A DNA stretch of 64,000 nucleotides from Planctomycetota bacterium (GCA_044222185.1 JBGANV010000006.1:64001-128000); one strand, 5' to 3'; shown: positions 7,625-60,121, counted from the first letter of the stretch. Notes: generated by a model from the sequence alone, not told the origin. Made by a program: numbers and translations.

Positions 7625-9343
7625 ATGAAGCTGACGTCGTTCGTTCTCGGGTTCGGGGCGCTCGTCGTCGGAGTCCCGGCGCAGACCACGCGCAACGTGC
7701 CGGGCCAGTACCCGACGGTGCAGGCGGCCATCAACGCGTGCGTCAACGGCGACACCGTGTTGATCGCGCCCGGCACGTACTCGGGCGGGATCAATTTCCT
7801 GGGGCGTGCGATCACCGTGAAGGGCTCGCAGCCGGCGCCCGCGACCGTGCTGCTCGGGACGGCCGGTGGTCGCGTCGTGACGTTCTCGACGGCGGAGAGC
7901 GCGGCGTCCATCCTCCGCGACGTGAAGGTCACGGGTGGCAACGGCGGGATCCTGATCCAGAACGCGTCGCCGACGATCACGAACTGCATCATCCAGAGCA
8001 ACGCGTCGACGACGGATGGCGGAGGCGTGGTGATTCACGCGAGCGGGGCCGGCTCATTCACGCCGACCATCTCGAACTGTGTGATCGGCGGGAACTCGGC
8101 GCTCAACAGCGGCGGCGGCGTCTTCGCCGACGCGACGAACGGGGCGGCGTTGCAGCTGTCCTGTGATGGGTTGTCGGTCGTGCAGAATGGTGCCGTCGGC
8201 CTCGTCGCGTCCAACACGGGTGCGGGGGGTGGGATCTACGTGACGTCGTCGGGGACGGCGACCTGCGCTCTCACGCTGTATCGGTCCACGGTCAGTCAGA
8301 ACTCTGCGGCCGGCAACGGGGGCGGCATTTACGCGTTGACCCCGACGATCGGATCCGCACTGACGATCCTGTCGTGCAGGATCCTCGACAACACGGCCGT
8401 CGTGAATTACGTGCCGCAGGGCGCGGGGGCTGGGATCGGTTCGGTGGCGGCGCAGACGACGCTCCAGAACACGCTCGTTGCCGGGAACGTCTCCAATTCG
8501 TTCGGTGGCGGCATGTTGATCGAGAATTCCGGTGTCGGACCGTCGGCGTCGATTCGCGGGTGTACGTTCGCGGACAACGTCGGGAGTTCGGCAGGAGTCG
8601 TGACGCAGGTCCCGCTGACGATCGAAGGCTCGATCTTCTGGGGCAACACAGGAGTTCAGGTTGCTCCGACGGCCAGCGGAGCGGTCAACGTCACGACGTC
8701 GGACATCCAATCCGGGATCTACACGAGTCTGTCCGGGAACATCACGGCCGACCCGCGCTTCGTCGACGCCGCGAACCGGGACTATCACCTCTCCCTCGGT
8801 TCGCCGTGCATCGACGTGGGCGGGAGCGGGGCAGGGCTCGCAGCTACGGACTGGGAGGGCACCGCGCGCGTCGTCGGCGCGGGGATGGACATGGGGTTCG
8901 ACGAAATCCCCGCCATCGGCCTCGCCGGGTCGAATGAGGACCTCGACCTCCTGGCGCGCATCAACGGCATCGGTGACCCCCACGTCACGAGCGTGGCCGC
9001 TCCCGCGAACAGCCAGCTTCGCCTGCAACTGCGTTCACCCGGCGGGACGTTCGTCGGGACGACACCGCTCGTGTTCGGCCGCGCCTACACCACGGGCGGG
9101 TTCATCGGCACCACCGCGGGATTTCCGACGATCCGCTTCGACATCGGGCCCTCGTTCCTGATGTTCGGCTCGTTCTCGCAGCCGTTCTACACGCCGGGTC
9201 TCCCCGCAGCCGGCGTGACGCTCGACTACGCCATCCCACCGGGCCTCGCCGGGACGACGCTGCGCGTGCAGGGATTCGCCGTCACGTCCATGGCGTCGAA
9301 CGCTCTCTTCGCCGCGAGCGAGGCGCACGACATCGTGTTCTGA
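7625..9343 (+). CDS. Secreted right-handed parallel beta-helix protein with shared C-terminal domain
   Basis: GAGGAG RBS; signal VPA|Q; VPGQYPTVQAAI...GDTVLIAPGTY; GGGI/NSA repeats; NITADPRFVD...DYHLSLGSPCIDVG...DMGFDE tail. Confidence 0.88.
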   Translation: MKLTSFVLGFGALVVGVPAQTTRNVPGQYPTVQAAINACVNGDTVLIAPGTYSGGINFLGRAITVKGSQPAPATVLLGTAGGRVVTFSTAESAASILRDVKVTGGNGGILIQNASPTITNCIIQSNASTTDGGGVVIHASGAGSFTPTISNCVIGGNSALNSGGGVFADATNGAALQLSCDGLSVVQNGAVGLVASNTGAGGGIYVTSSGTATCALTLYRSTVSQNSAAGNGGGIYALTPTIGSALTILSCRILDNTAVVNYVPQGAGAGIGSVAAQTTLQNTLVAGNVSNSFGGGMLIENSGVGPSASIRGCTFADNVGSSAGVVTQVPLTIEGSIFWGNTGVQVAPTASGAVNVTTSDIQSGIYTSLSGNITADPRFVDAANRDYHLSLGSPCIDVGGSGAGLAATDWEGTARVVGAGMDMGFDEIPAIGLAGSNEDLDLLARINGIGDPHVTSVAAPANSQLRLQLRSPGGTFVGTTPLVFGRAYTTGGFIGTTAGFPTIRFDIGPSFLMFGSFSQPFYTPGLPAAGVTLDYAIPPGLAGTTLRVQGFAVTSMASNALFAASEAHDIVF

Positions 9344-9393
9344 CGAGCCGACGCCGCGCGCGAGCGCTGCGGCATGCAGCCCCGAGGCCGCGG

Positions 9394-19646: not shown

Positions 19647-21542
19647 TCACAGGTCGAACACGACGGGAACGCTCAACGTGGGCCCACCCGCGCCGAGCCA
19701 CGCCGCCTGGATGCGGCAACCTCGAAGCCCCAGGGCGAACGGGGGACGGATGACCGGGGGAAGCGCCCAGGCTCCAGCGCCGTCGAACGCGGATGGTGTC
19801 GCCGGTCCGAGGGCGCCGAGGCCGTCCGCGAGCACGAGCGAGGCGAACGGGTTGCAGTGGATCGCCGCGCCTGCGAACGGGAGGGCCGGTGTTTGCGCCG
19901 GATCGAAGAGGACGGTGACGGGCGCGTTCGCGGGGCCCCCGCCCACGCTCAACGTCATCGTCCCGCCGGGGGCGGGTGCCGTGGGCGTGAGCGCGGCCGC
20001 GCCCGCGTAGCCCGAGAGCACCTGGGAGGGGAGCGTGAGCTTGCCCAATCCGAACTCGTACGGCGCATTCGCCGTCGACAGGCCCGTCGGGTCCGCGAAC
20101 GCGCGCATGAGCGAGCGGAGCGCGCCGCGGGTCTGCGTGATGCCGGGCACCATCGTCGTGAAGAGAGCGGCAGCGCCGGCTGCGTGCGGCGCGGCGGCGC
20201 TCGTGCCGGCAAACGTGCCGTAGTACGGATCGATCACGGCCGACGGCGCCGTGATGTCGGGCTTGGCCAGCGAGGGATCCTCGGGTGACGGTCCGAAGCT
20301 CGAGTACCCGGCGATGATGCCGTTGCTCCAGTGGCTCACGTGCATGGCCGCAACCGCGAGCGTCTCCGGCACGGAGGCGGGCAGGCAGATGCTGCCGGCC
20401 CGGTGCGCGGCGGCGCCGCTGAAGCTCGCGGCGCCCCAGACGAAGAGTTTCACACGCTTGTGAGTCTGACCGGGGGGCAGATTCACGAGGCGCACGCGGA
20501 GGCTCGCACCAGGCACGGCGCCGCCTCCGTAGTAGATCTCCTCGTACGCCTGCTGCGTGCCGTTCTGCACGTTGCTTGCGGTCGCGATCACGGTGCCGGT
20601 GGCGTCGAGCAGGTCCAGGTCGTAGTCGATGGACGTCGTCGGCCACGAGTCCCACGACAGCGAGAAGATCGATCCGCCGAACACGTTCACGGGAATCGAA
20701 TTGCCGAAGCCGGGCCAATCCATGCTGCCGTCGCTGTCGCCGTCGACGAACAGCCCGTCCGTGTGGGCGCCGGCGGAGTTTCCGGCCGCGAGCACGGCGA
20801 GACCGCCGGCGCTCGAGAGGATGTCCACGAACTGGTGCGAGAGATCCCCGGCGGCGCTCCAGAAGTTGCCCGCCGTGATGCAGTAGGAGTTGGACGTGAT
20901 CAAGCAGCCTTGCGAGACGGCCCACTGGTGCGCGAGCACGATGTCCGTGTCGGCCTCGATGTGCGCGGCGTAGAGCTGCGCTTGCGGTGCCATGTCATGC
21001 ACGATCTTCAGGCACGAGGTTCCGTGGTTGCCGCCGCTCTCGAACGGCGACGTGGCGTAGTTGATCGTGATGACGTTCGGGGGGATGTAGCCGTTCGCGA
21101 CCGCGTTCGAGAACTGCGAGAACTGCGGATCGACGACGCAGACCTTGCTCCCCTGACCCTGGTTGCCGAGCGCGTGCTGGGCCGGCGCGTTGGTGAGTGG
21201 CACGCCGTTGTTGACCGGATGCGCCGTGTGCGGCGGACGAACGAACGTCACGCGTGGATCGCTCGCGAGCCGAACGAGAGCGGGCCCATCGGCGAGCCCG
21301 TCAGCCCAGTCCGGTCCACGGCGGATGGCCGTGACCCCCGCGCCGATCGCCGCGGATGTGCATGCGTCGGCGGGGTTCGTCCACAGCACGATGCGTCGCG
21401 GTTCGGAGTCACCACGTCGCGCGGACGCCTCCAGTCGATAGTCCAACGTCGGGTAGAGACGGTCGCGACCGTCCTGGGCGAGTCCCAGTCCGACGGCCAT
21501 GGCAAACGCAACGACGACGCGCACCTGTTTCAGCTGGGACAT
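19647..21542 (-). CDS. Secreted S8 (subtilisin-like) serine peptidase with shared C-terminal domain
   Basis: Catalytic D (VCVVDP), H (NHGTSC), oxyanion N (AAGNS) and S (FAGTSAAAPHAAG); KPDITAP; signal GLA|Q. Confidence 0.9.
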   Translation of the reverse strand: MSQLKQVRVVVAFAMAVGLGLAQDGRDRLYPTLDYRLEASARRGDSEPRRIVLWTNPADACTSAAIGAGVTAIRRGPDWADGLADGPALVRLASDPRVTFVRPPHTAHPVNNGVPLTNAPAQHALGNQGQGSKVCVVDPQFSQFSNAVANGYIPPNVITINYATSPFESGGNHGTSCLKIVHDMAPQAQLYAAHIEADTDIVLAHQWAVSQGCLITSNSYCITAGNFWSAAGDLSHQFVDILSSAGGLAVLAAGNSAGAHTDGLFVDGDSDGSMDWPGFGNSIPVNVFGGSIFSLSWDSWPTTSIDYDLDLLDATGTVIATASNVQNGTQQAYEEIYYGGGAVPGASLRVRLVNLPPGQTHKRVKLFVWGAASFSGAAAHRAGSICLPASVPETLAVAAMHVSHWSNGIIAGYSSFGPSPEDPSLAKPDITAPSAVIDPYYGTFAGTSAAAPHAAGAAALFTTMVPGITQTRGALRSLMRAFADPTGLSTANAPYEFGLGKLTLPSQVLSGYAGAAALTPTAPAPGGTMTLSVGGGPANAPVTVLFDPAQTPALPFAGAAIHCNPFASLVLADGLGALGPATPSAFDGAGAWALPPVIRPPFALGLRGCRIQAAWLGAGGPTLSVPVVFDL

Positions 21543-21629
21543 GGCGGGCTCCAAGGCTTCACCGAACGGCCGGCACTTTACTCCGCCTGCCGTCATGCAT
21601 GGAAGCGCGAGGCGCCGCGTCCCCCGCGG

Positions 21630-22988
21630 TCAGTACTCGATCAGGGTCCTGGTCACGCTCGAGATGCCATCGAGGCCCGAGGCATTGGTGCTGACGACCT
21701 GCACGTGGATCACCATGTCGAACCCGGGGAAGAGTGGGATGCTGTTCAAGCTGATCCCCGCCGTTCCGCTACCGACCCCCGAGAGACCGGTGAAGATCGC
21801 GGGGAAGGTGTTCACGGGGAAGAGCGCCTGGAAGAGCGCGTCGCTCAGATCGAGCTCGAACCCGCCCACGCCCGTCTGGATCGGCGTCGCGAGGCGGGTG
21901 AAAGCCATGGCCACGACGTACCCGCTCGAGGGAGATTGCGCCGTCACGTTGAAGGTCGCGAACTTGTTCCACGAGGTCACAGGGACGGCGTACCCGTTGA
22001 TCGACGGCGCGGGGAGCACCGAGCCCGTGATCGCTGGGGATGGCGTCGCCACGAGGACGCACCCGTCACCCCCGGCGCCGCCGGGGGAGCAGCCGCAGTT
22101 GAACATCGTCGCGCCGCCGCCTGCACCGCCCGTCGCGGCCACCGAGCCGGTCGCACCGATGGTCACCGACGGCGCCAGAAGCTGGATCAATCCACCCGCG
22201 CCGCCTCCACCACCGCCGCCGTTGCCCGCGCTCGTCCCGCCGGCGCCACCTTTCGCGAAGACGAAGCCGTTGATCGTGATGGGGCCGTCGGCGGCGATCA
22301 CGATGAATCCACCGCCACCGCCACCGCCGCCACCGCCGTCATTCAATGCGAGGTTGCTCGGATCGTCCACGTCGTTGCCGCCGCCGCCTCCGCCCGAGCC
22401 GCCGCGGCACGGAGTCACCGTCGGTCCTCCGGCGCCGCTCGCATTCGACGTGAGTCCCGAGTTCGGAGCTCCGCCGGATTGACCGACAGTCCCGTTTCCG
22501 CCTCCTCCTCCGCCGCCGACCGGATCGGTGAACGGGCCACCGACGACACCGCCGTCGGTGCCAGGCACTCCACCACCAGGACCGGCCCCGACGGTGCCGC
22601 CGCCAGTGGCTCCCGTTCCGCCAGCGCCACCGTTGTAGGCGCCCGGGCCGCCCACGCCGCCGGCGCCGCCAGCCGTGTTGTTCGTGCTCGTCCCACCCGC
22701 GCTCCCAGATGCGTCGATCGTCCCGTCGATCGTCACGGCGCCCTGGCAGCGGAGGATGAGGACGTTGGCGCCGGTGTAACGGATCGTGACGCCCGCGGGG
22801 ATGTTGATCGACGTGTAGTTGAAGAGGTTCTTCGTCGTCGTCGAGAAGAACATGGGACCTGCCGGTGCGAACGCGCCGTCGATCCCGGTGCCCCCGTTGA
22901 CGGGGACGAGCGAGGTCTGGGCGCAGACCACGATGCAGAGGACGGACATGGCGACGAACGCTCGATCGAGGCCGAACCGGTGATTCAT
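21630..22988 (-). CDS. Secreted glycine-rich protein with shared C-terminal domain
   Basis: Signal VCA|Q; GTGIDGAFAP...FNYTSINIPAGVT; long poly-Gly tracts; ends TLIEY. Confidence 0.82.
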   Translation of the reverse strand: MNHRFGLDRAFVAMSVLCIVVCAQTSLVPVNGGTGIDGAFAPAGPMFFSTTTKNLFNYTSINIPAGVTIRYTGANVLILRCQGAVTIDGTIDASGSAGGTSTNNTAGGAGGVGGPGAYNGGAGGTGATGGGTVGAGPGGGVPGTDGGVVGGPFTDPVGGGGGGGNGTVGQSGGAPNSGLTSNASGAGGPTVTPCRGGSGGGGGGNDVDDPSNLALNDGGGGGGGGGGFIVIAADGPITINGFVFAKGGAGGTSAGNGGGGGGGAGGLIQLLAPSVTIGATGSVAATGGAGGGATMFNCGCSPGGAGGDGCVLVATPSPAITGSVLPAPSINGYAVPVTSWNKFATFNVTAQSPSSGYVVAMAFTRLATPIQTGVGGFELDLSDALFQALFPVNTFPAIFTGLSGVGSGTAGISLNSIPLFPGFDMVIHVQVVSTNASGLDGISSVTRTLIEY

Positions 22989-23109
22989 GGCGAGACTTTC
23001 CCTTGGCATTGCAGCCAGGTTCCTTATCGGACTCCTGGAGGTCGATTCATCAGCAGGCCCGGCGGGCCGTGGGGTCGCAGGCGCCGACCCCGGGTAGAAT
23101 CCGCGACCC

Positions 23110-24894
23110 ATGGCCGATGAAAACAAGCGACAGGTCTTCGGCAGCTTCAAGGACTTGCGCAAGGCCCTGGGCGGAGGCGAAGACCCGCCTGAGCCTGAGC
23201 CGACGACGCCCGCTGGCGGTGGAGAGGGCGACGATCCGGCGTTGGACGAGGCGGCCGCCGAGCAGTCGATCCGCGAGATCCTGGCGTCCATGGGCGACGC
23301 GTTCGGTCCCATGGAGCACGGCCCGGCCTGCTATCGCGACGTCGAGAGCGAGGAGATGCTCTTGCTCGCCTCGTTCCGCGTTCGAACGATCTTCCCGGAC
23401 GCCGTGAAGGCCGAGGTCTCCGGGCTGCCCCGCGACCCCAGGCCCGAGGACTACGCCGGTCGCGCCGACCTGCGGCAGGAGCGCATCTTCACCATCGACG
23501 GTGAAGACGCGAAGGACTTCGACGACGCGATCTCGATCAAGCCGCTCGAGGACGGCGGGTACGAACTCGGCGTCCACATCGCCGACGTCAGCCATTACGT
23601 GACGAAGGGAACGGCGCTCGACCGCGAAGCGATCGCGCGTGCGACCAGCGTGTACGTCGCCGACCAGGTCGTCCCCATGCTGCCGGAGGAGCTGTCCAAC
23701 TTCCTCTGCTCGCTCATGCCGCATCGGGATCGCCTGGCGTTCTCGGTGATCATGCGCTTCGACGCCAAGGGCGAGGTCACAGGCACGCGCATCTTCAAGA
23801 GCGTCATCCGCTCCATGCATCGCTGCACGTACCGCGTCGTGCAGGACATCCTCGACGGCAAGGACACGGAGGAGACGCGCCCCTTCGCCGACATCACGGA
23901 GGACCTGAAGCACTTCGAGCGCTGGACGAAGCGCCAGCAGCAGATCCGCGACTCCAAGGGATCGCTACGCCTCCAGAGCTCGGAGCGGAAGTTCCAGTTC
24001 AACGAGAAGCACGAGGTCGTGAAGATCTATCGGAGCGCGAACTACTTCTCGCAGGCGCTCATCGAGGAGACGGCGCTCGCGGCGAACCAGGCCGTCGGTG
24101 ACTTCTTCCTGGCTCGTGACCTTCCCACGATCTACCGGATCCACCCGGAGAAGGACGAGGAAGAGCTCGAGGGCGTGAAGAAGACGCTGGCGCAGCATGG
24201 GATTCGCGTGCCCGACAAGCGACTGACGGGACGGGACATCGGACGCATGATTCGGGAGGCGCGCAAACGGCCGAACGCCGAGGCGCTGATCTCGCGCATC
24301 ATGGGCCTCGTCGAGCGCGCCGTCTACGAGGTCGTGCGGCCTGGCGAAGATGCCCCGCATTGGGGATTGGCGCGGCAGCATTACCTGCACTTCACGTCGC
24401 CGATCCGGCGTTATCCGGACCTCATCGTCCACCGCTGGCTGCATGACGTGATGACGCGACAGAAGGACGCAGTGTCCGAGCTGCTCGAACCGGAGCAGAT
24501 CCTCGAATTGTGCGACGTCGCGAGCCAGTGCAGCGGGCAGGCGGAACTCGCGACGATGGTGGAGTCCGCCGTCGACGACCTGAAGACGTGCCAGTACATG
24601 GATCGCTACGTGGGCCAGGAGCTCACGGCGATGGTGCAGCGCGTGTCGCTGTACGGCATCGAGGTGTTCCTGAAGGAGCACGACGTCACGGGATTCCTGC
24701 CGGCTCGCAACCTCGAAGGGCGCAAGAAGCTCGAGGGCCCCGTCCTGAGCATCGTGAATCCCAAGGGCGGGAGCCGCGTCTTCCGCGAGGGAGACCCCAT
24801 CGGGATCATCGTCGCTGCCGTGGATTTCGTGCGGCTCGAGGTGCTTCTCGAACTCGCCGACCTCCACCACAAGAAGAAGGCCTCGAAGAAGTAG
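23110..24894 (+). CDS. RNase II/RNase R family exoribonuclease (RNB + S1 domains)
   Basis: FTIDGEDAKDFDDAIS, VHIADVSHYV, HFTSPIRRYPDLIVHR, C-terminal S1-like region and basic tail. Confidence 0.93.
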   Translation: MADENKRQVFGSFKDLRKALGGGEDPPEPEPTTPAGGGEGDDPALDEAAAEQSIREILASMGDAFGPMEHGPACYRDVESEEMLLLASFRVRTIFPDAVKAEVSGLPRDPRPEDYAGRADLRQERIFTIDGEDAKDFDDAISIKPLEDGGYELGVHIADVSHYVTKGTALDREAIARATSVYVADQVVPMLPEELSNFLCSLMPHRDRLAFSVIMRFDAKGEVTGTRIFKSVIRSMHRCTYRVVQDILDGKDTEETRPFADITEDLKHFERWTKRQQQIRDSKGSLRLQSSERKFQFNEKHEVVKIYRSANYFSQALIEETALAANQAVGDFFLARDLPTIYRIHPEKDEEELEGVKKTLAQHGIRVPDKRLTGRDIGRMIREARKRPNAEALISRIMGLVERAVYEVVRPGEDAPHWGLARQHYLHFTSPIRRYPDLIVHRWLHDVMTRQKDAVSELLEPEQILELCDVASQCSGQAELATMVESAVDDLKTCQYMDRYVGQELTAMVQRVSLYGIEVFLKEHDVTGFLPARNLEGRKKLEGPVLSIVNPKGGSRVFREGDPIGIIVAAVDFVRLEVLLELADLHHKKKASKK

Positions 24895-25134: not shown

Positions 25135-25488
25135 ATGGTCACCTACCTGCTGAGCATCATGCAACCGGACGGCCCACCTCCTGGCCCCGAAGTTCTGGAT
25201 GGCGTCATGCGGAACGTGGGCGTCGTCATGCAGGACCTGAAATCCAGCGGGGCTTGGGTGTTCAACGGAGGACTCCACCCGCCGAGCGCGGCGACGGTCG
25301 TTCGTGCCAAGGCCGGTGAGCTGCTCACGACCGACGGTCCCTACGCCGAAGGCAAGGAGCACGTCGGCGGGTTCATCGTCATCCGCGTGTCCGACCTCGA
25401 CGCAGCGCTCCGATGGGCCGGGAAGTTCGCACGAGCGATCACGCTCCCCATCGAGGTGCGCCCGTTCCAGCATGCAAGCTCGGGCTGA
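25135..25488 (+). CDS. YciI/DGPF domain protein
   Basis: GGAG RBS; [12 protein letters not shown]...[16 protein letters not shown]...IEVRP. Confidence 0.92.
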
Positions 25489-26726: not shown

Positions 26727-29700
26727 TCAGAGCTGGTCAGGCGTGCGGGCCCACGTGAGCTTCAACACCGTGGGGTTGCCCGGATCGAAGTACACGGCTT
26801 GCAGCGTCGCCGAGATTCCCAACGGGACCGGGGGCAACACGAAGCCCGGAATGACGATCTTGCCGCTTGCGTCGTAGGCGAACGGAATCGCGGGGCCGAA
26901 GAGCCCCAGTCCATCGAACACGGGAATCAGCGGTCCCGACGAGCCGGCGAACGGGCTGAGCGAGATGACGAGGTTCTCGGCGCCCGTCGGGAATGGCGCG
27001 ACGGGGTTCACGGCGCCGAGGTCCGCGAGAACGGTGACGGGAGCGAACGGAGACCCGCCTTCCATCACCATGGCGTAGGGCTGCCCGGGCCCGACGTTCA
27101 TCGGTTCACGGCGGATCGTGCCCTGGTTGCTCCAGTTCCCACCCACCGGCAGGGCGACGGAATCGCAGACGACACCGCCCGCCGTCACGACGTTGATCGT
27201 GATCCCGCCGACGAACTGGGTCGACGGGACGGACGGTCCGAGCTGTGCCGACAGCTGTGTGGATCCGACGAACGTCGTGGCCAGCGCGTAGCCGTCGGCG
27301 TAGACGATCATGCCGGCCGAGAAACACGTGCCGTCGATGACGATCGTCGTCGGGGGAGACGCGGGGCCGAGGATCGCGAACGGGCTGGGAGAGAGAGAGG
27401 TGATCTGGTGCACGTTCACCGAGAGCGTCGCGGACGATGACGTGGCCGACCCGCAGGCATTGGTGACGACGCAGTCGTAGGAGCCCACGTCCGTCGGAGC
27501 GGCGTTCGCGATGGCGAGCGACGCGCCGTTGGCGCCCGGGATCGGCGAGCCGCCCTTGCGCCACTGGTAGGCGAGCGGGTTCGCGCCCGTTGCCGTCACC
27601 GTGAACGTCGCGAGCCCGTCGATGCACACGGATTGCCCGACGGGGTCGGTGACGACGGCAGGCGGCGCGTCGACGGTGAGGATGGCGCCTGCGCTCGTCA
27701 CCGAGCCGCAGGCATTCGTGACGGAGCAGGAGTAGATCGCTGCGTCGGCGGCCGTCGCGGCGGCGATGAGGAGCGTCGCGGTCGTCGCGCCCGCGATGGG
27801 CGAGGCGTCCTTCAACCATTGATAGCTGAGCGGTGCCGTGCCGGAGGCCGTCACGGAGAACGTCGCCGGCGCGCCGTCGCACACCGTCTGCGGTGCCGGC
27901 GGAGTCGTCACTGCCGGGGCCAAATCGACGGTGAGGGTCGCGGCCGTGCTCGCGACGCTCCCACACCCATTCGTGACCGTGCACTGGTAGGAACCCTGGT
28001 CGGCGGCCGTCGTGACGGCGATGAGGAGCGTTGCATTGGTCGCTCCCGCGATGGGCGAGCCGTCCTTCAACCATTGATAGGTGAGCGGTGCCGTGCCGGA
28101 GGCCGTCACGGAGACGCTGGCGGGAGCGCCCTCACAGACCGTCGACGGCGACGGAGGCGTCGTGATCGAAGCCGCAGCGTCGAGCGTGAGCGCAGCGCCG
28201 TTGCTGGTGACCGTTCCACAGGGCCCCGTGATCACGCAGTCGTAGGTGGCGACGTCGGCGTTCGAGACGTTCGAGAGCGCAAGCGTCGCGGAGGTCGCAC
28301 CCGAGATCGCGACCGCGGCCTTCCGCCACTGGAAGCCCGTCGCACTCGTCGCCGTGACCATGAAGGATGCCGATCCACCCGGGCATGCGGTCTGAGGGCT
28401 CGGTTGTCCGGTGACGACCGGTACGGTGTTCACGGTCAACGTCGCCGGATTGGACGTCGCCGTTCCGCAGGCGTTCGTGATGACGCAGTCGTAGGTACCG
28501 GAGTCCGCCGTCGTCACGTTCGCGCGACTGAGGAGGATCGACGTTGCGCCGGCGATCGGCGCTCCGCCCTTGCGCCACTGATAGGTGGGGGTGCCCGTCG
28601 CGCTGACGAGGAAGAACACCGTCGCCCCGGAGCAGACCGATTGCGTCGCGGGGTGCGACGTGAACGTGGGTGCCGCATTCACCGTCAGCGTCGCGGCGTT
28701 GCTGGTCGTCGTGCCGCAGGCGTTCGAGACGAGGCAGTCGTAGCTGCCCGCATCGCCGGCCGCGACGCTGGGAATCGTGTATGTCGTGCTCGTGGCGCCA
28801 CCGATGTTGGAGCCCGCCTTGCGCCATTGGAACCCCGTGGCGCCCGACGCCGTCAGCGACAGCGTCGCGGGGTTGCCGACGCAGCCCGTCTGATTCGTCG
28901 GCTGCGACGTGATGACCGGAGTCGCGCACGTCGACCCGTTGTAAACGTAGAGCGCGAAGTCCTGGTCCGTCCCGTCAGCGTTGCCGGGCACTCCGTCACC
29001 GGCGATGTTGGTGGCCGTCACCGTGATCGTGAACGCACCTGTGACGCCCGCGGGAAGGAACACGAACTCGGCGTTGTTCTTGTCGTCGGCGACGCCGCCG
29101 GTCACCGAGGTTTGACCGGTGAACACATTGCCCTTGTAGGTGTTGCCGTTGACGACGACCTGCAGATCCAGGTTGTTCACGTAGGCGTTGCCGGTCGTCG
29201 GGCCAGGGGCATCCGTCCACGCGAGCGCGACGCGGAACGGCTGAGTGCTCGACGCCACGGATCCGGACAGCGTGAACGTGTTGCCCGTCGCACCGAAGAC
29301 CTGCGTCTGATCGACACGCGCCGTCGCCACGCCGTCGAACGCGCGACCCAGGTCGACGCGGCCCATTCCCTGTGTGTTCGACCACAACGTGTCGTTGCCG
29401 TTGACGCCGGTCATGTAGCGGGTCGTGCACATCAGCGCAGCCTTCACCATCGCGGGGCTCGGTGTGCCCCAGGCCTGGTTGATGAAGTACTGGTAGATGA
29501 GCGCCGTAGCGCCTGCGACCGCCGGACACGAGTGGCTCGTACCCGTCGACCAGCAGTAGAGCGTCTGTCCGATCGGCCAGTACGTGTTGCAGACGCCCAT
29601 GCCGGTGTAACTGAGGGATCGGCTCGCCGCGCCCTGGATGTGGACGCCAGGAGCCGTCACGTCCGGCTTCTTCCGGCCGTCCGCCGTGGGACCCCGTGCA

Positions 29701-33038: not shown

Positions 33039-33188
33039 GTGCGCCGGTCGGGGCAGCCCGAGCCAGTGTTTTTCCGGCTCTCTGCCCGGAAAGAAGATGC
33101 GGGGCGGTGATCGCCTGACGCGATGCCGTTCCTCGTCGTGGTGAAAATCCTCTACTCGTTGATGCAGTCGGTTCACGGGAGTTTCAAC

Positions 33189-34325
33189 ATGCGTCCCTGT
33201 CTGTTGGTGTTTGCTTTCGTTGCGCTCGCTGGGTTCAGCGCCGCGCAGGGTTTCGAGTGTCAGGCCGTCGGGGCATTCCCGAACATCTGCTGCGCGGACT
33301 GCGAGAACGTTCAGTCAAACGCCTCGCTCCTTCCGGACAGCGGTGGCACCGGGATTGACAACACGGTGACGTGTGGCTTCCCGACTGCCGGCGCGCAGTA
33401 CGCCCGTATCGAGGCGAGCGGCCCGCTCAACGTTCCGGCTGGTGGCGTCGGCGGCACGATTCCGCGTCCCATCGACCTGAGCGTTGCCGAGCTCCGCATC
33501 CCGGTCCCGTCCGGTGCGACCGCCGTCAGCTTCAAGTTCGACTTCTTCAACGCTGAAGTTCCGAACGAGGCCACGTTCAACGACGGCTTCGCCGCGTCGA
33601 TCTGCGCCTTCGGCACCGATCTCTCGCTGGTCGACCTCGCCTACCGTGACACGTTCTCGGCGAACAACGGTTGCGTGGACAGCGTCAGCAACGGCGTCGA
33701 GACGGGCTCCGTCGGCGTCGACTCCGTCACGCACGTCTTCACGGCCACGGAACTCGCGGCCATCGCGGCCGCTCAGGCCGCGGGTGGTGCGTACCTCTCG
33801 CTCGCGTGCTGGAACGGTGGCGATGATTCCGTCGACTCCGGCGCGGGGATCGACTGCGTGTCGTGGGATTCGTTCTTCGACGTCCCGAACACGGGCGCAC
33901 TCGGTGGTGCATCCCGCATCGACAACGTGACGGCCAACCCGGCTGACACGTTCACGATCGGCGCGCCGGGGGCCACGCGGCTCCGCGTGCATGGCATTTC
34001 GGAAGCGGTCTTCATCGAAGGCTTCCACTGCCTCGTCGCCCAGGTCTACGGCGACAACTTCGTGCAGCAGTTCCCGGCGGCGGCTGACGGTGGGTTCTTC
34101 ATCGACCCGACCCGTCCGTTCGTGTCGCTCTCGGAAGGTCAGCTGACGGGTGGTCTCGCGGCCGGCACGGCTGCGCGCGGCCCGATCGTCAACCTGAGCT
34201 TCGCCGATCCGGCCCTTTGTGGCTCGATGGTGGTCTTCCAGGCCTACATCCAGGACGAGAACTTCCCGACGAACGTTCCGACCGTGAAGGTCTTCACCAT
34301 CGCGTCCATCGGCTCGCTGCACTGA
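33189..34325 (+). CDS. Secreted Cys-containing hypothetical protein, possibly an abundant surface protein
   Basis: GGGAG RBS; signal SAA|Q; SFKFDFFNAE...FNDGF...GDDSVDSGAGID jelly-roll-like core; C-terminal DPALCGSMVVFQAYIQD. Confidence 0.85.
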   Translation: MRPCLLVFAFVALAGFSAAQGFECQAVGAFPNICCADCENVQSNASLLPDSGGTGIDNTVTCGFPTAGAQYARIEASGPLNVPAGGVGGTIPRPIDLSVAELRIPVPSGATAVSFKFDFFNAEVPNEATFNDGFAASICAFGTDLSLVDLAYRDTFSANNGCVDSVSNGVETGSVGVDSVTHVFTATELAAIAAAQAAGGAYLSLACWNGGDDSVDSGAGIDCVSWDSFFDVPNTGALGGASRIDNVTANPADTFTIGAPGATRLRVHGISEAVFIEGFHCLVAQVYGDNFVQQFPAAADGGFFIDPTRPFVSLSEGQLTGGLAAGTAARGPIVNLSFADPALCGSMVVFQAYIQDENFPTNVPTVKVFTIASIGSLH

Positions 34326-34407: not shown

Positions 34408-34745
34408 GCCCGTCGTCGTCAGGCGCTGGCGCGACAGCACGCGGCAATCAGGCTCCGCGTGGGTCGCCCGGACCCGGTCGGTGATTTCCGGCCGGTGAGT
34501 CACGCCGGCGGCCGCGCAACCCCGCGTCGCGGGATACATCCACGCGCGGCCGGCTTCATCAAGTCGTGCCCGGCGCGCGCCTTTTCACCGCACGGCTTCG
34601 GGCGACTGCGCCGCCATTCTTTCGCTACACGAGTCGTGGCTCACGAGACGAGAAGAGGGGGGCCGACATCGCGTTCGATGTTGGATCTGTATCTCGCGTA
34701 GAGGGTGCCGCGAGGCACCCCAAGAAAAGTCTGGAGCCGAAACTG

Positions 34746-37401: not shown

Positions 37402-37640
37402 AAAGCTGAGCGCTCGTCGCGAAAGCCGTGCGCAGGAGCGGAAAACCAGAAGCGGCGAATTCACGCTTTCGGGTTTGTGCAGCTTGGTGGCACATCGGGC
37501 GCAGTCCGATCTCCAGAAAGCGCAGAACTTTGCATCAAAGTGGGATTGCAAGTTCCAAGCCGCTCTATGTAATGGGGCCGTCCATTCGCCCCAGATGGTG
37601 CTCCTCGTTCGCCGGCCCCGCCCACACCCCCCGACAAATC

Positions 37641-40217: not shown

Positions 40218-40500
40218 ACGCGCGGGCGCGTCCTCACGCGCCGCGCATCCCCCGTCGGGCCAAAACCCGCAAGAAACTGCAGAGACCGGATCTCGGAGCA
40301 GACTGTTCCGCGGGGGATTCACCGTCTATGCTTCACGGCCAATCCCGCGCGGCCTCGCGCCGTCATCCCGTTCCCACGACCGAAAGCCGTGATCCATGCG
40401 ACTCCGCCGACCCCTGCGGTGCGCCTGGGCCGCTGACGCCCTCAGCCCGGCGATCGCGTCACATGGATCAAACGCGCTCCAAGAGCCGGAGATCGCCCGC

Positions 40501-42990
40501 ATGACCTGCCAGTCGCTTCGAACCTTCGTCCTCGCGTTCCTTCTCCTCGGTGTCTCGGGGGGCACGTCGTCCGCCCAGGGATCCGCCGGGTCGCCAGGGG
40601 GGAACCCGAATGCCGCATGGGCCGGATTGCCGCTCGTGTTCGCGCACAACGCCGGACAGCACGACGCATGGACGAGGTACTCGGCGCGGTGGGGGGGCGT
40701 GGCGGCGTTCGTCGGCGACTCTGGCATGCGGCTCACGGTGATGAAGAACGGGCCGAGCCGCGTCGTCGAAGGTGACACCGGGGCGAACGTTCGCCTGACG
40801 TTCGATCAGGCTCGCGACGGCGTCGTCGCGAAGGGGACGGATCTCCGCGAGACACGGTTCAACTATTTCCTCGGAAACGACCCCAAGGGTTGGTTCACCG
40901 ACGTGGCGACCTTCGGCAGCATCGCCTGGCACGAGGTGTGGACCGGCATCGACGCGCGGCTCTACGACGGCGGCGGACGCTTCGAGTACGACTTCGTGGT
41001 GAAGCCCGGCGCCACATCCAGCGACGTCGTGGTCCGGGTCGCCGGGTGCGACGGGCTCGCGATCCGCGACGACGGCGCTCTCGTCATCGCGACGGCCGTC
41101 GGCAACCTGATCCAGCCTCGCCCCAAGGCGTGGCTCCTCGGCGCCGATGGCACGAAGACGAGTGTTGCGTGTGCATTCCGCCTCATCGACGAAGGGCGCT
41201 TCGGCTTCGCCGTCGAGGGCGATGGCGCGCGTACCCTCGTGATCGACCCGTCGATCGTGTGGGGCGGATACATCGGCGGGACGAGCTTCGATTCCGGATT
41301 TGGAATCGCCGTCAACGCTGCCGGGAACGCATTCGTCTGCGGGCGAACGGCCTCCACCGACTTCCCCGTCACGGCTGGCGCGTTCGATACCTCGCGCTCG
41401 GGCCCCGAGGATGCGTTCGTCGCGAAGATCGCCGCCAGCGGTGCATCCGTCGTCTGGGCCACGTTCATCGGCGGCACAGGTCTCGATTTCGCCAACGTCG
41501 TGAAGGTGGACGCGTCCGACCAGGTGGTCATCGCGGGGTTGGCCTCGGGCTCCTTCCCGACGCCAGTCGGCTTCGACACGACCTACAACGGCAACGCGGA
41601 TGCGTTCGTCACGAAGTTCAACGCTGCGGGCAATGGCATCGTCTTCTCGACCTACCTCGGCAGCAACAACCAGGACGTGGCGACCGGCCTCGCACTGGCG
41701 CCCACGGGCGAAGTCACTGCGTGTGGCGCAGTCCAGGGCACGGGGTTCCCGTACCAGCCGGGTTCGTTCCAGAGCACGCCGACCGGTGACTGGGAGGCCT
41801 TCGCGTGCCGGTTGAGCGCCGCGGGAACTGCCCTCCAATTCTGCGCCCGGCTCGGCGGAGCGGGCTTCGACACGGCAAACGGTGTCGCGATCGACTCCAC
41901 CGGCAACACCTACGTGGCGATCAGCACCGAATCGGTGGGCGTCTCGACGACGGCCGGCGCCATCCAGGCGAACAACGGCGGGGGAGCCTCGGACGTCTAC
42001 CTCGCGAAACTCAACGTCGCCGGGTCGGCTCTCGTCTATGCGACCTACCTGGGCGGGATCGGCGCCGACCAAGCGACGGGGATCACGCTCATCGGCAACG
42101 ACGCGGTGATCGTCGGCCAGGCATTCGCGGGATTCCCGACGACACCCGGAGCGCTCCAACCGGTCGCCAACAACGGCGACGGATTCCTCGCGCGGATCAA
42201 CGCCACGGGAACCGGCCTCGTCTTCTCGACCTTCCTCGGCGGATCCAACTTCGACAATCTCACGGGCGTCGTCGCCGACGCGAACGGCGCGATCTGTGCA
42301 GCCGGTTGGACGTCGTCCGCGGACTTCCCGGTCACACCTCAGGCCTTCATGACGACGTACGTTGGCGGCGGTTCGCCCGGTGATGCGATCGTCGTGAAGT
42401 TCTCGCCGGACGGCCACGCGTTGTCCTACAGCACGCTGATCGCCGGCGATGGCAGCGATCAGTTCCGTGGTCTTGCGCTCGATCCCGCGGGCGGGCTCTA
42501 CCTCACGGGCGTCACGGACTCGACGGATCTCCCCGTTCCGACAGGCGGTTTCCATGGCACGAGCGTCGGTCAATCCGACGGGATCGTGATGAAGATCGCG
42601 CTTCCATTGGGTGCCGCCGTGACGAGCGCCGGCGTCGGCTGCGGGGTCGCACCCGTCTTCACGTCGAGCGTGCCGTTCCTCGGTCTGCCGCTGACCCTGG
42701 ACATCACCGGCGCCACCGTGAACGCCGGGGGCTACCTGCTTCTCAGCGGCGTCCCGTCGGCCGGGACTCTCGTCGCGCCAGGCTGCACCACGGCACTGGA
42801 CCTCGCCACGCTCTCGCCCGTCGCGACGTTCGTCACGAGCGGGACAGGCACCTGGAACTTCGTCAGCGCGCCGCTTCCGCAGATCGCGGAGCTCAACACG
42901 CTCACCGTGCGGTTGCAGGTGCTGATCGTCGGCGGGCCGGCTCCGGGGTTCACGCTCAGCAACGCACTCGAGCTCCGTACGGGCTACTGA
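40501..42990 (+). CDS. Secreted SBBP-repeat beta-propeller protein, paralog 3
   Basis: GGAG RBS; signal SSA|Q; FAHNAGQ, NYFLGNDP, FEYDF, LVIDP, SBBP repeats; ends LSNALELRTGY. Confidence 0.92.
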   Translation: MTCQSLRTFVLAFLLLGVSGGTSSAQGSAGSPGGNPNAAWAGLPLVFAHNAGQHDAWTRYSARWGGVAAFVGDSGMRLTVMKNGPSRVVEGDTGANVRLTFDQARDGVVAKGTDLRETRFNYFLGNDPKGWFTDVATFGSIAWHEVWTGIDARLYDGGGRFEYDFVVKPGATSSDVVVRVAGCDGLAIRDDGALVIATAVGNLIQPRPKAWLLGADGTKTSVACAFRLIDEGRFGFAVEGDGARTLVIDPSIVWGGYIGGTSFDSGFGIAVNAAGNAFVCGRTASTDFPVTAGAFDTSRSGPEDAFVAKIAASGASVVWATFIGGTGLDFANVVKVDASDQVVIAGLASGSFPTPVGFDTTYNGNADAFVTKFNAAGNGIVFSTYLGSNNQDVATGLALAPTGEVTACGAVQGTGFPYQPGSFQSTPTGDWEAFACRLSAAGTALQFCARLGGAGFDTANGVAIDSTGNTYVAISTESVGVSTTAGAIQANNGGGASDVYLAKLNVAGSALVYATYLGGIGADQATGITLIGNDAVIVGQAFAGFPTTPGALQPVANNGDGFLARINATGTGLVFSTFLGGSNFDNLTGVVADANGAICAAGWTSSADFPVTPQAFMTTYVGGGSPGDAIVVKFSPDGHALSYSTLIAGDGSDQFRGLALDPAGGLYLTGVTDSTDLPVPTGGFHGTSVGQSDGIVMKIALPLGAAVTSAGVGCGVAPVFTSSVPFLGLPLTLDITGATVNAGGYLLLSGVPSAGTLVAPGCTTALDLATLSPVATFVTSGTGTWNFVSAPLPQIAELNTLTVRLQVLIVGGPAPGFTLSNALELRTGY

Positions 42991-47427: not shown

Positions 47428-47498
47428 CTCCCGGCGCGCTGGACACGGGTGGTAAGCTCGCGGCCCTTCCCTGAGACAACCCCCACGTGGAGTTCCCC

Positions 47499-49091
47499 AT
47501 GAGTCGACGACTCTTCGTTGCGCTTCTTGCGTTCGCCGCGGCTGCGAGTGTTCCGGCGCAGGTCGTGAAATACGGCAACCCGTCGCCGGCGGGTTTCGGT
47601 GCGACGTTCGACGCGGGGGGACAGCTTCCCGTGGTCGGGAACCTGGGATTCCAACTGGTCGTGCATGGAACGACGAACCCGCTCGGGGGTGCGCTCCTCA
47701 TCGCATCCGGCTCGGCGACCGTCCCCATCGGGGCCGCGACGCTCCTGCTCGATCCGCTGACGCTGTCCCTGACGGATCTCCCTGCCGGGATCACGGGGCT
47801 CCAGCTCGGACTCGCGAACAACCCGGCGCTCGCGGGGCTTTCGGCGTTCGGGCAAGTGGGAATCATCGACCCCGCTCAATCGGGCGGATTCGGCCTCACC
47901 AACGCGATCCTCGTGACGGTCATGCCACGCGCGACTCCGACGCGCGCCTGGTTCAGCGGACAGAACTTCGCCGGGGGGCCCAGCATCCTCACGTCGCTCG
48001 ATCTCACGGGAGCGTCACCCGCATTCCGCGCGACGGGCTCCCTCGGGTTCAGCGGCGGAATCGCCTTCGACTTCAGCCCGAAAGTCGCCGCCTGCCCCTC
48101 GACGAACCTCGTCTACGCGCTCGGCAATCAGAATGTCAGCCAGTTCGTGCGCGTGTTCGACGCATCGGCCGATCCCAGCGGCATCGTGACGTGGCCCTTC
48201 GTCGCGGACATCCCCGTGGCGTCGCCCATCTCGTCGATCGTCGGCCGGCGCGATCTCGAGGTCATGCCGGACAACACGCTCATGTTCGTGACCTCGGGTG
48301 ACGGCAGCTCGTCGCTTCCCGTCCTCCTCCAGGTGTTCGACGTTTCGGGGCTGCCGTCGACGGCGCCGACGGCGTCGATTCAGACGATCACCTACGCCAA
48401 TTCGGGCATCGGCGAAGTCTGCCTGGAGATCTCGCCGGACGCGACGAGACTCGCCGTGGTGAACTCGAACGACAACCAACCTGCTCTGACGCTGTACTCG
48501 ATCCAGTACGGCGCCACTCCGCCGCTGACCTCGCTCGGCACCTGGTCCTTCGCAAACTCGGTGGGCTCCGATTACCCGAGCGACGTGCACTTCGCGCCGG
48601 ACGGCTCGTTCGTCGCGGTCACGGGCGGGAACGGCACGATCTCGCTCGTCGATCTCACGACGACGCCGCCGACGGTCCGATTGAACGGCGCCTCGTGGGG
48701 CGCGGCGACCACGTCGGGGTTCCACGGCTCGGCGATCGCCATCAGCAACGGCGCGCCGGTCGCGGTCATGGGCGAGGAGGGCAGTGCGGCGACGATCCGC
48801 TACCGCATGGTCGACCTGAACGTCTGGTCGCCAACCTTCGGCGCGCAGCTTTCGAGCTTCACGACGAGCACGGGGAACATCTCCAACCATCGCATGCATG
48901 GTCAGCAGAACATCGTCATCGGGATCGACGGCACCGGGGCAACCGTCGACTGCCAGTTCGTCGACGTGATCGACCTGGATCAGCCGCTCGGGGCCGGCGG
49001 TTTCCAGTCCTGGCGCGTGAAGATGCCCACGTCGGCGACGCTCACGCCGGGCGGGCTGTCGTGCATCCCACGCGACTTCGCTCTCTACTGA
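47499..49091 (+). CDS. Secreted protein: N-terminal copy of the shared domain plus a probable beta-propeller
   Basis: GGAG RBS; signal VPA|Q; PALAGLSAFGQVGIIDP...GFGLTNAILVTV; blades EVMPDN, EISPDA, HFAPDG. Confidence 0.85.
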   Translation: MSRRLFVALLAFAAAASVPAQVVKYGNPSPAGFGATFDAGGQLPVVGNLGFQLVVHGTTNPLGGALLIASGSATVPIGAATLLLDPLTLSLTDLPAGITGLQLGLANNPALAGLSAFGQVGIIDPAQSGGFGLTNAILVTVMPRATPTRAWFSGQNFAGGPSILTSLDLTGASPAFRATGSLGFSGGIAFDFSPKVAACPSTNLVYALGNQNVSQFVRVFDASADPSGIVTWPFVADIPVASPISSIVGRRDLEVMPDNTLMFVTSGDGSSSLPVLLQVFDVSGLPSTAPTASIQTITYANSGIGEVCLEISPDATRLAVVNSNDNQPALTLYSIQYGATPPLTSLGTWSFANSVGSDYPSDVHFAPDGSFVAVTGGNGTISLVDLTTTPPTVRLNGASWGAATTSGFHGSAIAISNGAPVAVMGEEGSAATIRYRMVDLNVWSPTFGAQLSSFTTSTGNISNHRMHGQQNIVIGIDGTGATVDCQFVDVIDLDQPLGAGGFQSWRVKMPTSATLTPGGLSCIPRDFALY

Positions 49092-58165: not shown

Positions 58166-58477
58166 GCCGCCGCGGGCGCAACCGCCGTTCGGTTCGCGAG
58201 GCGCGCGCGTCGTTCGCGACGCCGTCGGGCGCGTCGGGGAACGGTTTCGACTCGTGGCCCGATCGATCGCGCGTGGGCGCGTGGCGCGGCCTCACCCGAC
58301 GCCGGGATCGGGAGTAAGATCGGCCCCCGCGTCGGACGAGAGCGGCGCGTGGTGAGAAGTTCGCGCCTGCCGGTTCGGTGCGACGGAACGTCGCGTGAGA
58401 TCTCCTGATCGAGCGGCGTCTCGTCCAGGTCGATTGTGTCGGTGTGTCGTCATCGCACCGACGGAGGAGAGGGTGAG

Positions 58478-60121
58478 ATGTCTCCACGTTCCGCAACCGG
58501 TTGCGCCCTGACTTTCACGCTGGTGTCGGCGATCGCCGCTTCTCTCGGTGCGCAGACGGTCTGCAGTGCGGCGAGCTTCGGCTCCCTCACGGCCGATCCG
58601 ATCACGATCACGGGCTCGTGGACGATCGGCGACCTGTGCACCATCGACTTCCAGGGCCGTCACGTGATCCTCGCGTCACCCTGCACGATCCAGGTCGACC
58701 GCGCCACGATCCTCTGCGGCAGGCTCACGATGAACGGGAACACGCACTTCACGGGCGTGCCCACGGGCCCGCGCCGGTTGACCATCGACACGGCGAACCA
58801 CGGCGTCAACACGGGCGACGTCTCGATCGCGGGCACGATCGACATGTCCGATCCCGCCCAGGGAGGCGACGTCTTCATCAACGCGTTCAACGCATTCACG
58901 ACGACGGGCAGCGGCTGGATCAAGACGAAGTCGACGGCCACCGGCGGCTACGGGGGCTGGCTCTCGATCACGGCCGGGGGGGCCGTGACCATCGGCGGGG
59001 CGACGACGGCACTCGATTCCCAGGGCTCCACCGACGGTGATGGCGGCGACATCGACATCACGTCCGTGAATTCGACCGTCACGATCACGCGCATGGTGGA
59101 CGCGTCATCCGCGAGCAGCGATTTCAGCTTCGGCGGCTACGTCACGATCTCGGCGTTCGGTGCGGTCGTCACCGCGGCGGAGGTCCGCACGCGTGCGAAC
59201 GTCGCCGGAGACGTCGACGTGATCAGTCAGAGCAGCGGCGCGATCACGCTGGGTGCACCGATCAACGCCGACGGCGTCGGCACCGACGGCTGGGGCGGAT
59301 GGGTGACCATCAGCACCGCCGGCGCATGCAGCCTCGGAGACATCATCGAGGTGAACGGCTCGCTGAGCGGAGGCTCCGCCGGCGTCATCGACGTCGCGGC
59401 GCAGACGCTGACGGCCACGCCGAATTGCCGTCTCCGAGCGAACGGCAACGACAATTCCACACCGGGCGGTGACGGCGGATGGGTGACCATCGACGTCTGC
59501 CAGGCGAACTTCCTGCCCGCCAGTTCGATCGTCGCGCGTGGCAGCAACACGGCCGGCACGATCGACGTCACGACGCACGACATCATGACGATCGCCGGCA
59601 CGATGAATGCCTCGACCCCGGGTAGCGTCGGAGCCATCACGTTGACGACCCGTCTGTCCGCGCCGTATTCGCCCGTGCTCACGGGCTCGACCTTCACCCC
59701 GGCGCCCGCGGTCGTCCACCAACCGTCGCTCTCGCCCTGCCTCGCTCTGCCCACGTCCACGCTGACGGGCACGAGCCCGGTTCCCGCCGGCGGTGTGTTC
59801 CACCTCCAGGTCTCATCCGTGCCGGGCAAGCAACTGCTCGTCGTCGCGCAGCCCGCGCTCGCCTACCTGAACCTGGGTCCGCTGGGTTTCACGCAGATCG
59901 ACATCTTCACCAACGCGCTCCCGTTCGCCGACCCCGGCTTCTTCGGTCCGCCGATTCCGGGATCGATCACCGACTCCGCAGGCAACTGGCAGTTCAACTA
60001 CACGCTTCCCCTCACGCCGTCTCTCGCAGGGCTCTCGATCTTCGTCGAGGCCTACGTCCTGGACTCGACGGCGGCGAACGGCGTGTTCCACCAACCGCCG
60101 TACCTCCGGGTGAATTTCTGA
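58478..60121 (+). CDS. Secreted beta-helical repeat (haemagglutinin-like) protein with shared C-terminal domain
   Basis: GGAGGAG RBS; signal LGA|Q; about 10 repeats GG(W/D/Y)(V/I)xI / AGxIDV at ~30-aa spacing; ends PSLAGLSIFVEAYVLD...LRVNF. Confidence 0.87.
   Translation: MSPRSATGCALTFTLVSAIAASLGAQTVCSAASFGSLTADPITITGSWTIGDLCTIDFQGRHVILASPCTIQVDRATILCGRLTMNGNTHFTGVPTGPRRLTIDTANHGVNTGDVSIAGTIDMSDPAQGGDVFINAFNAFTTTGSGWIKTKSTATGGYGGWLSITAGGAVTIGGATTALDSQGSTDGDGGDIDITSVNSTVTITRMVDASSASSDFSFGGYVTISAFGAVVTAAEVRTRANVAGDVDVISQSSGAITLGAPINADGVGTDGWGGWVTISTAGACSLGDIIEVNGSLSGGSAGVIDVAAQTLTATPNCRLRANGNDNSTPGGDGGWVTIDVCQANFLPASSIVARGSNTAGTIDVTTHDIMTIAGTMNASTPGSVGAITLTTRLSAPYSPVLTGSTFTPAPAVVHQPSLSPCLALPTSTLTGTSPVPAGGVFHLQVSSVPGKQLLVVAQPALAYLNLGPLGFTQIDIFTNALPFADPGFFGPPIPGSITDSAGNWQFNYTLPLTPSLAGLSIFVEAYVLDSTAANGVFHQPPYLRVNF

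Follow-up and report, generated by a model that had tools for sequence, protein, structure and literature searches.

An immunoglobulin-like domain at the ends of unrelated exported proteins in a Planctomycetota bacterium: a candidate envelope-docking module

Do secreted proteins with quite different cores, encoded near one another in a Planctomycetota genome, end in one and the same domain, and what could such a domain do for its carriers? The question is raised by a 64-kb window (JBGANV010000006.1:64001-128000, G+C 66-70%), which here means the whole stretch of DNA analysed, with positions counted from its first nucleotide. The window is located on contig C16 of a 7.08 Mb host genome (16 contigs, completeness 93.8%), and the closest named relatives of one of its housekeeping genes, an RNB ribonuclease, are found in Planctomycetota metagenome-assembled genomes at 60-62% identity. 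A sequence-only reading of the window had proposed that nine named proteins share a terminal module serving secretion or surface attachment. The data presented here establish the domain as real, together with its predicted fold class, copy number, terminal bias, association with signal peptides, promiscuity of cores and phyletic pattern. A docking function, and with it a common receptor, is what we infer from them.

A sequence check located all nine open reading frames (ORFs) in the window, and for most of them the start codon chosen in the sequence-only reading opens on a Sec-type signal peptide. The cores recognised by Pfam and NCBIfam are an S8 peptidase, immunoglobulin (Ig) repeats and DUF7948 plus SBBP propellers, with a choice-of-anchor Q domain in the protein at 7625 and a choice-of-anchor Z repeat in the protein at 26727 (NCBIfam); the last 110-130 residues of all nine are covered by no Pfam or NCBIfam model at E<=0.01. 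When the nine 160-residue tails were compared all against all by BLASTP, strong links were confined to two groups, the SBBP trio (E 2.7e-35 to 4.7e-11) and the S8 pair 19647 and 26727 (E 8.5e-12), while links across groups were marginal (best E 0.004 and 0.01). The resemblance seen by eye across groups is therefore not significant pairwise, and profiles are required to recover it.

Searched singly with phmmer against 45,997 stop-to-stop ORFs of at least 80 residues from the genome, seven of the nine tails recruited between 5 and about 35 paralogues, nearly all at ORF ends, and the 19647 tail, which has no significant paralogues of its own, was nevertheless matched by the 26727 tail at E 8.1e-8. 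Iterated profiles grown from the three SBBP seeds gathered 205-213 ORFs. The 58436 seed gathered 134, with 115-117 in common with each SBBP set, the 26727 seed 61 (10-14 in common), the 33123 seed 6 (4 in common) and the 7625 seed 25 (none in common). Profile-profile comparison of the subfamily alignments with hhalign joined 26727 to 58436 (99.0%), to 19647 (98.7%) and to SBBP (96.9%), and 7625 to SBBP (95.2%); 33123 scored 81.9% against SBBP and 82.0% against the 58436 subfamily. Two curated alignments, A1 with 26 tails and A3 with 17 tails of the 7625 type, matched each other at 91.4% (E 9.2e-7) over their C-terminal 66 columns. Furthermore, the 58436 tail is matched directly by three foreign subfamily hidden Markov models (HMMs), those of SBBP (E 1.3e-4), 7625 (1.6e-4) and 33123 (4.7e-4). 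On the strength of these profiles, eight of the nine named tails can be assigned to a single domain superfamily, with 33123 as the weakest and most divergent member accepted. The ninth, that of the Gly-rich ORF at 21630..23312 (-), in which Pfam and NCBIfam recognise nothing, was left outside the superfamily: phmmer found no paralogue among the genome ORFs, its iterated profile reaches only itself, hhalign gave less than 1% against every subfamily and no subfamily HMM matched it at E<1. The proposed module is thus shared by eight of the nine proteins, whose tails do align significantly at profile level, and is missing from 21630, whose tail does not.

The copies in the window lie on both strands. 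On the plus strand, the beta-helix protein 7625-9343 carries the 7625 subtype (signature PPGLxGxxxRxQ) at 8999..9337 (subfamily HMM E 3.2e-43), and the protein 33123-34325 carries a copy at 33936..34292 with six paralogues, 4 of them also in the iterated SBBP set. The three DUF7948+SBBP proteins follow, 34566-37316 with its domain at 36939..37310 (HMM E 9.3e-39; included in A1), 37428-40217 (likely start 37641) with the folded reference copy at 39840..40211 (E 6e-43), and 40396-42990 with its domain at 42619..42984 (E 2.4e-32). The bridging member 58436-60121 has its copy at 59729..60115 (own-subfamily HMM E 5.4e-69). On the minus strand, the S8 peptidase 19647-21596, in which the Pfam S8 domain spans residues 190-516 only, ends in a copy at 19677..19988 (26727-family HMM E 3.3e-20), and the 1536-residue S8/Ig-repeat protein 26727-31337 ends in one at 26748..27107 (subfamily HMM E 4.3e-40), with its choice-of-anchor Z repeat, residues 1311-1389, directly upstream. 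A tenth carrier missed by the sequence-only reading, protein 47487-49091 (+), has the domain at its N-terminus (47556..47921; iterated profile E 3.3e-14, non-iterated A1 E 1.2e-4), immediately after the signal peptide MSRRLFVALLAFAAAASVPAQ.

How widely the domain is used was assessed across the genome with two kinds of profile. Built solely from the 26 C-terminal copies, the non-iterated A1 profile matches 119 ORFs at i-E<=1e-5, a number that rises to 145 at 1e-3, and the union of the iterated searches holds 309 ORFs, one being the unrelated 21630 seed, so that a genome-wide HMM count of the kind the sequence-only reading had called for gives from 119 carriers in a single pass to about 308 after iteration. 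Domain genes are clustered, with 64 intergenic gaps between successive carriers of less than 2 kb (random placement expectation about 8%). More than one copy per ORF occurs in just 2/309. With the non-iterated profile 106 copies are C-terminal, 11 N-terminal and 2 internal (n=119); with the iterated profiles 215/309 end within 10 residues of the stop codon and 258/309 within 30, while 30/309 stand directly behind a signal peptide and 21/309 are internal or unclear. Profile drift does not account for the N-terminal copies, since the non-iterated profile also finds them (E down to 3e-12). Among the best 150 matches in a public protein library, 146 end within 8 residues of the C-terminus, and two, P0079 and P0096, carry the domain right after the signal peptide. 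C-terminal placement, as first proposed, therefore holds for about 84-89% of copies and fails for the 9-10% that directly follow a signal peptide and for the few that are internal.

The link to export and the variety of the cores were both borne out. By a crude heuristic, 266/309 ORFs have a signal-peptide-like start ahead of the domain, compared with 21.6% of 8,423 background ORFs, and nine proteins consist of little more than a signal peptide and the domain. The 240 cores of at least 100 residues fall into 79 BLAST clusters, one of them a repeat-linked cluster of 133 and 58 of them singletons, in line with the many unrelated cores proposed. No special linker or cleavage motif was seen in the 25 residues upstream of the domain, where composition is ordinary. 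The cores of 99 public members that were scanned include FG-GAP, RCC1, Kelch, GEVED, GBD_T9SS_assoc, Laminin_G_3, astacin, matrixin, trypsin, Ig, MopE, LTD and DUF7948+SBBP domains as well as one Ser/Thr kinase fusion, and in none of the 99 does any family have its best stretch on the terminal domain.

The signal peptides of the carriers very often end in A-Q or G-Q (VPAQ, LPAQ, GLAQ), in 225/266 carriers and in 600/1,821 background ORFs with a crude signal-peptide-like start; the ending is seen genome-wide, for example at the window starts 7625, 26727(-), 33189, 47487 and 58478. This points to cleavage on the N-terminal side of Gln, perhaps leaving a pyroglutamate at the new N-terminus. In one paralogue group the ending is AQQPN, and the signal peptide is followed by a divergent domain copy, then by a region with the motif FYG...Y..v.v.sNGy.tF and a C-terminal NRY..Y (C6:644344-648694(+), C6:445504, C8:140499, C6:25925, C5:59668 and others, where C numbers denote contigs; three are in tandem on C6). 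The kinase fusion, a single long ORF at C14:150280-153957(+) (= P0032), combines a Ser/Thr kinase, a transmembrane (TM) segment, a TPR-like region, another hydrophobic segment, a region resembling LamG and the terminal domain. Its product could be a receptor kinase whose outer end bears the domain, or else two genes may have run together in this ORF.

The reading that we favour, at roughly even chances of being right, is that the domain is a portable, non-covalent docking or anchoring module for exported proteins on the cell envelope. Proteins exported by the Sec route, whose many unrelated cores include beta-propellers, S8 and other peptidases, Ig arrays and beta-helices, would each bear a single copy at a free end, which is usually the C-terminus and sometimes the mature N-terminus. 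After export, the module would most likely dock its passenger non-covalently to a shared envelope component and so keep a large set of exoproteins on the cell surface. Its logic would be that of an anchoring or address module of the S-layer homology (SLH) or dockerin kind, rather than that of a translocation signal whose position is fixed. Alternatively, the domain could be a true C-terminal sorting signal, analogous to the C-terminal domain (CTD) of type IX secretion system (T9SS) cargo, whose folded form is recognised by a dedicated outer-membrane machine; that machine would carry the passenger through the outer membrane or onto it, and might also remove the domain by cleavage and link the passenger covalently. 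We consider this unlikely, cleavage and covalent attachment included. The extreme C-terminal placement of most copies agrees with it, as do the tens to hundreds of cargo-like proteins per genome, the cores of a type known from T9SS or PEP-CTERM cargo (GBD_T9SS_assoc, GEVED, LTD and Ig_7, the last 'CHU_C associated'), a predicted Ig-like sandwich as in T9SS CTDs and the lack in this genome of an exosortase or sortase able to serve the carriers. The N-terminal and internal copies, the stand-alone copies and the lack of a processing motif upstream make docking the likelier of the two, and a sorting signal further has to contend with a lack of HMM similarity to sorting domains, Por_Secre_tail included, and with the failure to find any candidate machinery.

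What the domain looks like was addressed by structure prediction. AlphaFold2 models A1 as a beta-sandwich of 10-11 strands (mean pLDDT 93.5, pTM 0.84) and A3, of the 7625 type, also as a beta-sandwich (pLDDT 88.3, pTM 0.81), so that the two divergent subtypes are predicted to belong to the same fold class, and the domain is a predicted Ig-like beta-sandwich superfamily of about 115-135 residues. When 230 C-terminal copies are aligned to the A1 profile, conservation is highest at G89 (90%), Q111 (84%), P98 (80%), G105 (77%), G35 (74%) and P101 (73%), and weaker at L103, A112, D116 and G122, giving the signature ...G-x8-[IVL]-P-x-(D/N)-P-x-L-x-G-x5-Q-A-x3-D-P...G-x3-(T/S)-N.... In order, this core runs through a Gly turn, the loop [IVL]-P-x-(D/N)-P-x-L-x-G, a long strand bearing Q-A, a (T/S)-N turn and the last strand, and the 7625 subtype has it in the form P-P-G-L-x-G-x5-Q. 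A Cys pair (G-x-G-C ... G-C-x-x-Y-L-D) is present in about 30-34% of copies. The tail motif drawn by eye in the sequence-only reading is the true conserved core in these 230 copies, and its frequent terminal aromatic residue is likewise real: the final residue is F or Y in 52/221 copies ending within 10 residues of the stop codon, where the background for ORFs of at least 300 residues is 2.1% F and 0.8% Y. The copies whose ends were listed have, as first described, neither a TM helix nor a basic tail there. Five members continue past the domain with a conserved extension of about 33 residues (YGPxSGxxxW...P.LG..F.V.F.I), possibly an extra strand or a second tag; these are C1:1117461-1119257(-), C1:1725175-1727154(+), C14:352296-354284(+), C14:217222-219843(-) and C11:64243-66642(-).

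Comparison with known families returned nothing close. None of the 26 A1 members matches Pfam or NCBIfam even at E<=1, and the domain has no model in the Pfam and NCBIfam copies searched; a profile search of PDB sequences gave nothing significant (best E 0.23), and Foldseek found no PDB match at E<=1e-3. Aligned with VIA-align to 48,161 chains, the A1 model has its best match in a TEP1r macroglobulin domain (Z 8.6, rmsd 3.1, 100 residues aligned) and the A3 model reaches Z 7.4 at best, the remainder being Ig, FN3, MG and adhesin domains with little to choose between their scores, as is typical of an unmatched sandwich. The proposed comparison with T9SS CTD, cohesin and Ig folds gave generic Ig-like matches, and among the 50 matches listed for either model there is no T9SS CTD, cohesin or dockerin structure, which leaves room for such structures further down. 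The 30 nearest clusters in the ESM Atlas are named 'hypothetical protein', have no common Pfam family and come most often from Planctomycetota. Word-indexed protein searches with the tail matched proteins of this genome only, and a related-locus search with a single tail found no relatives. Neither Soli_cterm (TIGR03437) nor post-COAP-1 (NF041523) matches the domain in the NCBIfam scan, and hhalign shows no profile similarity to either (probability 0.1-2.4%). The HMM scans, together with ends that have no TM helix or basic tail, agree with the first reading that the tails match none of the T9SS, PEP-CTERM and LPXTG types. Full-text searches on secreted and surface proteins of planctomycetes turned up no paper that describes the domain.

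The structural neighbours at Z 7-8, which include adhesin repeats and one carbohydrate-binding module, bring up a further explanation, that the domain is a passive ligand-binding or adhesion module, lectin-like or similar to carbohydrate-binding modules, for an external substrate, a particle or other cells and not for the bacterium's own envelope. Ig-like sandwich modules often bind ligands, and a domain that can sit at either end of a protein, or stand alone, is typical of binding modules. However, the domain almost never occurs in tandem or repeated, which sets it apart from adhesin repeats, most of the cores are other than carbohydrate-active enzymes, no conserved aromatic or polar residues suited to binding are evident and divergence as high as that described below would imply hundreds of different ligands, so this explanation seems to us doubtful.

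Docking draws support from what homologues of the SBBP carriers have in the same position. Other phyla are rich in homologues of the DUF7948+SBBP core (7,653 at E<=1e-10), and the C-terminal families recognised on them are Soli_cterm, post-COAP-1 (1 protein), Por_Secre_tail (PF18962) and SLH (PF00395, one homologue). Soli_cterm was found in 6/6 of the 'TIGR03437 family' DUF7948+SBBP proteins tested, ending 0-30 residues before the C-terminus. An NCBI-sourced orthologue with 54% identity, P0159, ends in the present domain. Because DUF7948+SBBP homologues carry recognised sorting or anchoring modules there, the domain fills the slot of such modules. The choice-of-anchor Q and Z domains on two window proteins were counted toward the same slot, following what we take 'choice-of-anchor' to mean in NCBIfam names.

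A search for machinery that might serve the carriers was less rewarding. The sequence-only reading saw no dedicated machinery in the window, and a gene-by-gene look at the window agrees, with no candidate found. In the genome, exosortase (PF09721) was not found by a search whose control was positive, nor was sortase (PF04203), for which 3 control genomes were positive; PEP-CTERM (TIGR02595) and Por_Secre_tail gave no genome match with models that were silent in the control genomes too, and SprA (TIGR04189) was matched neither here nor in 14 control genomes. The GC-type dockerin NF041540 matches nothing in the genome or on the tails. The features of PEP-CTERM, namely a PEP motif, a TM helix and a basic tail, are lacking, and the tails end in a beta-strand with no cluster of Arg or Lys. 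In a phylum sample exosortase PF09721 is present in 26/65 domain-positive genomes (40%) and in 102/236 domain-negative ones (43%), and the idea that the domain replaces PEP-CTERM at the level of the genome was rejected since the two are neither complementary nor correlated.

Several observations weigh against docking. No receptor or machinery was identified in the window or among flanking genes, and clustering of the ORFs that flank domain genes gave no clear recurrent partner, in a comparison made noisy by spurious high-GC ORFs. The fold matches from the predicted models are generic and uninformative as to function, and no binding site is evident in the conservation pattern of the 230 copies. 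The copies are extremely diverged, 122 well-scoring ones forming 106 groups at <45% identity, which is more divergence than one would expect of a conserved docking surface. The strong C-terminal bias equally fits a C-terminal signal with a few co-opted exceptions. Finally, the most conserved residues are Gly, Pro and Cys and may be purely structural, which is also what would be expected if the domain were a structural cap or an aid to folding and stability with no targeting role, like the PPC or P-domains of secreted peptidases. Secreted peptidases are indeed among the carriers, yet the cores are far too diverse for one common folding aid, stand-alone copies exist and homologues have genuine anchors in the same slot, which together make a cap very unlikely. 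A homodimer prediction for the domain scored 0.21 against a mark of 0.42 and speaks neither for nor against self-association.

Set beside known systems, the domain has clear parallels and equally clear differences. The T9SS CTD (type A, Por_Secre_tail, TIGR04183/PF18962; type B, TIGR04131) is similarly a single copy at the end of tens to hundreds of unrelated signal-peptide proteins in a restricted lineage, with overlapping passenger types (GBD_T9SS_assoc, GEVED, Ig_7) and PF18962 on SBBP-core homologues, and it is a small Ig-like sandwich, as the present domain is predicted to be. Unlike it, the planctomycete domain has no HMM similarity to it, is larger (115-135 residues compared with the 72-position TIGR04183 model) and is not strictly C-terminal (11/119 or 30/309 after a signal peptide). 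Soli_cterm, the 'Solibacter uncharacterized C-terminal domain', likewise closes the C-terminus of many paralogous secreted proteins in one lineage and sits on orthologous DUF7948+SBBP cores, but it has 225 positions, its named carriers are from Acidobacteria-type sources and hhalign gives 0.1-0.4% against the planctomycete domain.

SLH-type modules occur N- or C-terminally on exoproteins and hold their carriers on the envelope. They resemble the present domain in being terminal and have the anchoring role that is proposed for it, and PF00395 sits on one SBBP-core homologue, but they have no sequence similarity to it and a different fold. Dockerins, which have an EF-hand-like fold, can occur at either end of a protein. 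Dockerin and cohesin pairs, including the GC-type NF041540, offer a parallel in that a portable module at a protein's end is proposed to tether secreted enzymes to a scaffold on the surface, whereas the planctomycete domain shows no HMM similarity to dockerin, is a predicted beta-sandwich and has no cohesin-like partner that could be found. In PMC6461901, a cohesin-dockerin 'planctosome' is proposed for the peptidases of one Phycisphaerae family, a related concept of surface docking that is there based on different domains.

Beyond this genome, the domain is common within one lineage. In a representative public set of 1.84 billion proteins, the A1 profile finds 13,894 cluster representatives at E<=1e-3, 2,551 at E<=1e-10 and 31 at E<=1e-30. 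All 23/23 genomes of the same order are positive (this genome, 4/4 of the same family and 18/18 others of the order), the matches per genome ranging from 16 to more than 100, while 3/18 other genomes of the phylum are. In an even sample of the phylum 65/301 Planctomycetota genomes are positive (E<=1e-5), in a pattern that is coherent by family: two families are uniformly positive (f8, 8/8; f25, 6/6) and three uniformly negative (f7, 0/16; f15, 0/17; f28, 0/11). The lineage-specific distribution first suggested from the window alone is therefore upheld.

The carriers share the window with genes of many other kinds, among them those for sigma factors of the extracytoplasmic function (ECF) type and anti-sigma factors, a glycogen debranching enzyme, S9 and M28 peptidases, an AlgX-like SGNH protein, a ribonuclease, MFS and MMPL transporters and a cytochrome c peroxidase. 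Among the exoprotein genes lie an ECF-type sigma factor with a zf-HC2 anti-sigma factor (415-2009, +) and a second sigma-70-family gene of the DUF6596 type (25304-26689, +). The N-terminal carrier is the last of three abutting, co-directional and operon-like genes (43553-49091, +), which encode an MMPL/RND-like membrane protein (43553-45739), an uncharacterised secreted protein (45736-47427) and the carrier itself (47487-49091); a genome paralogue was found for none of the three. A secreted beta-propeller protein resembling Rax2/DUF5122 (9394-12003, -) ends in a different, Cys-containing region that no subfamily HMM matches and that may be a second kind of tail.

Little is understood of how planctomycetes place their very large sets of exoproteins on the outer membrane or beyond it. 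The domain described here is borne by about 120-300 exported proteins of this genome and by tens in each genome of the order that was searched. Naming it would improve the annotation of thousands of 'hypothetical' proteins and define the likely surface proteome of carriers that are uncultured. As a module of 13 kDa that is predicted to fold well, it also offers a handle for pull-downs of a receptor or of machinery. It is possible, if improbable, that a large clade of Planctomycetota has an outer-membrane system for secretion or attachment that has so far escaped discovery, with the domain as the tag on its cargo of hundreds of proteins per cell; such a system would be a functional counterpart of the T9SS or exosortase systems with machinery absent from library models. 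If a dedicated system does exist, it would constitute a new protein-sorting pathway.

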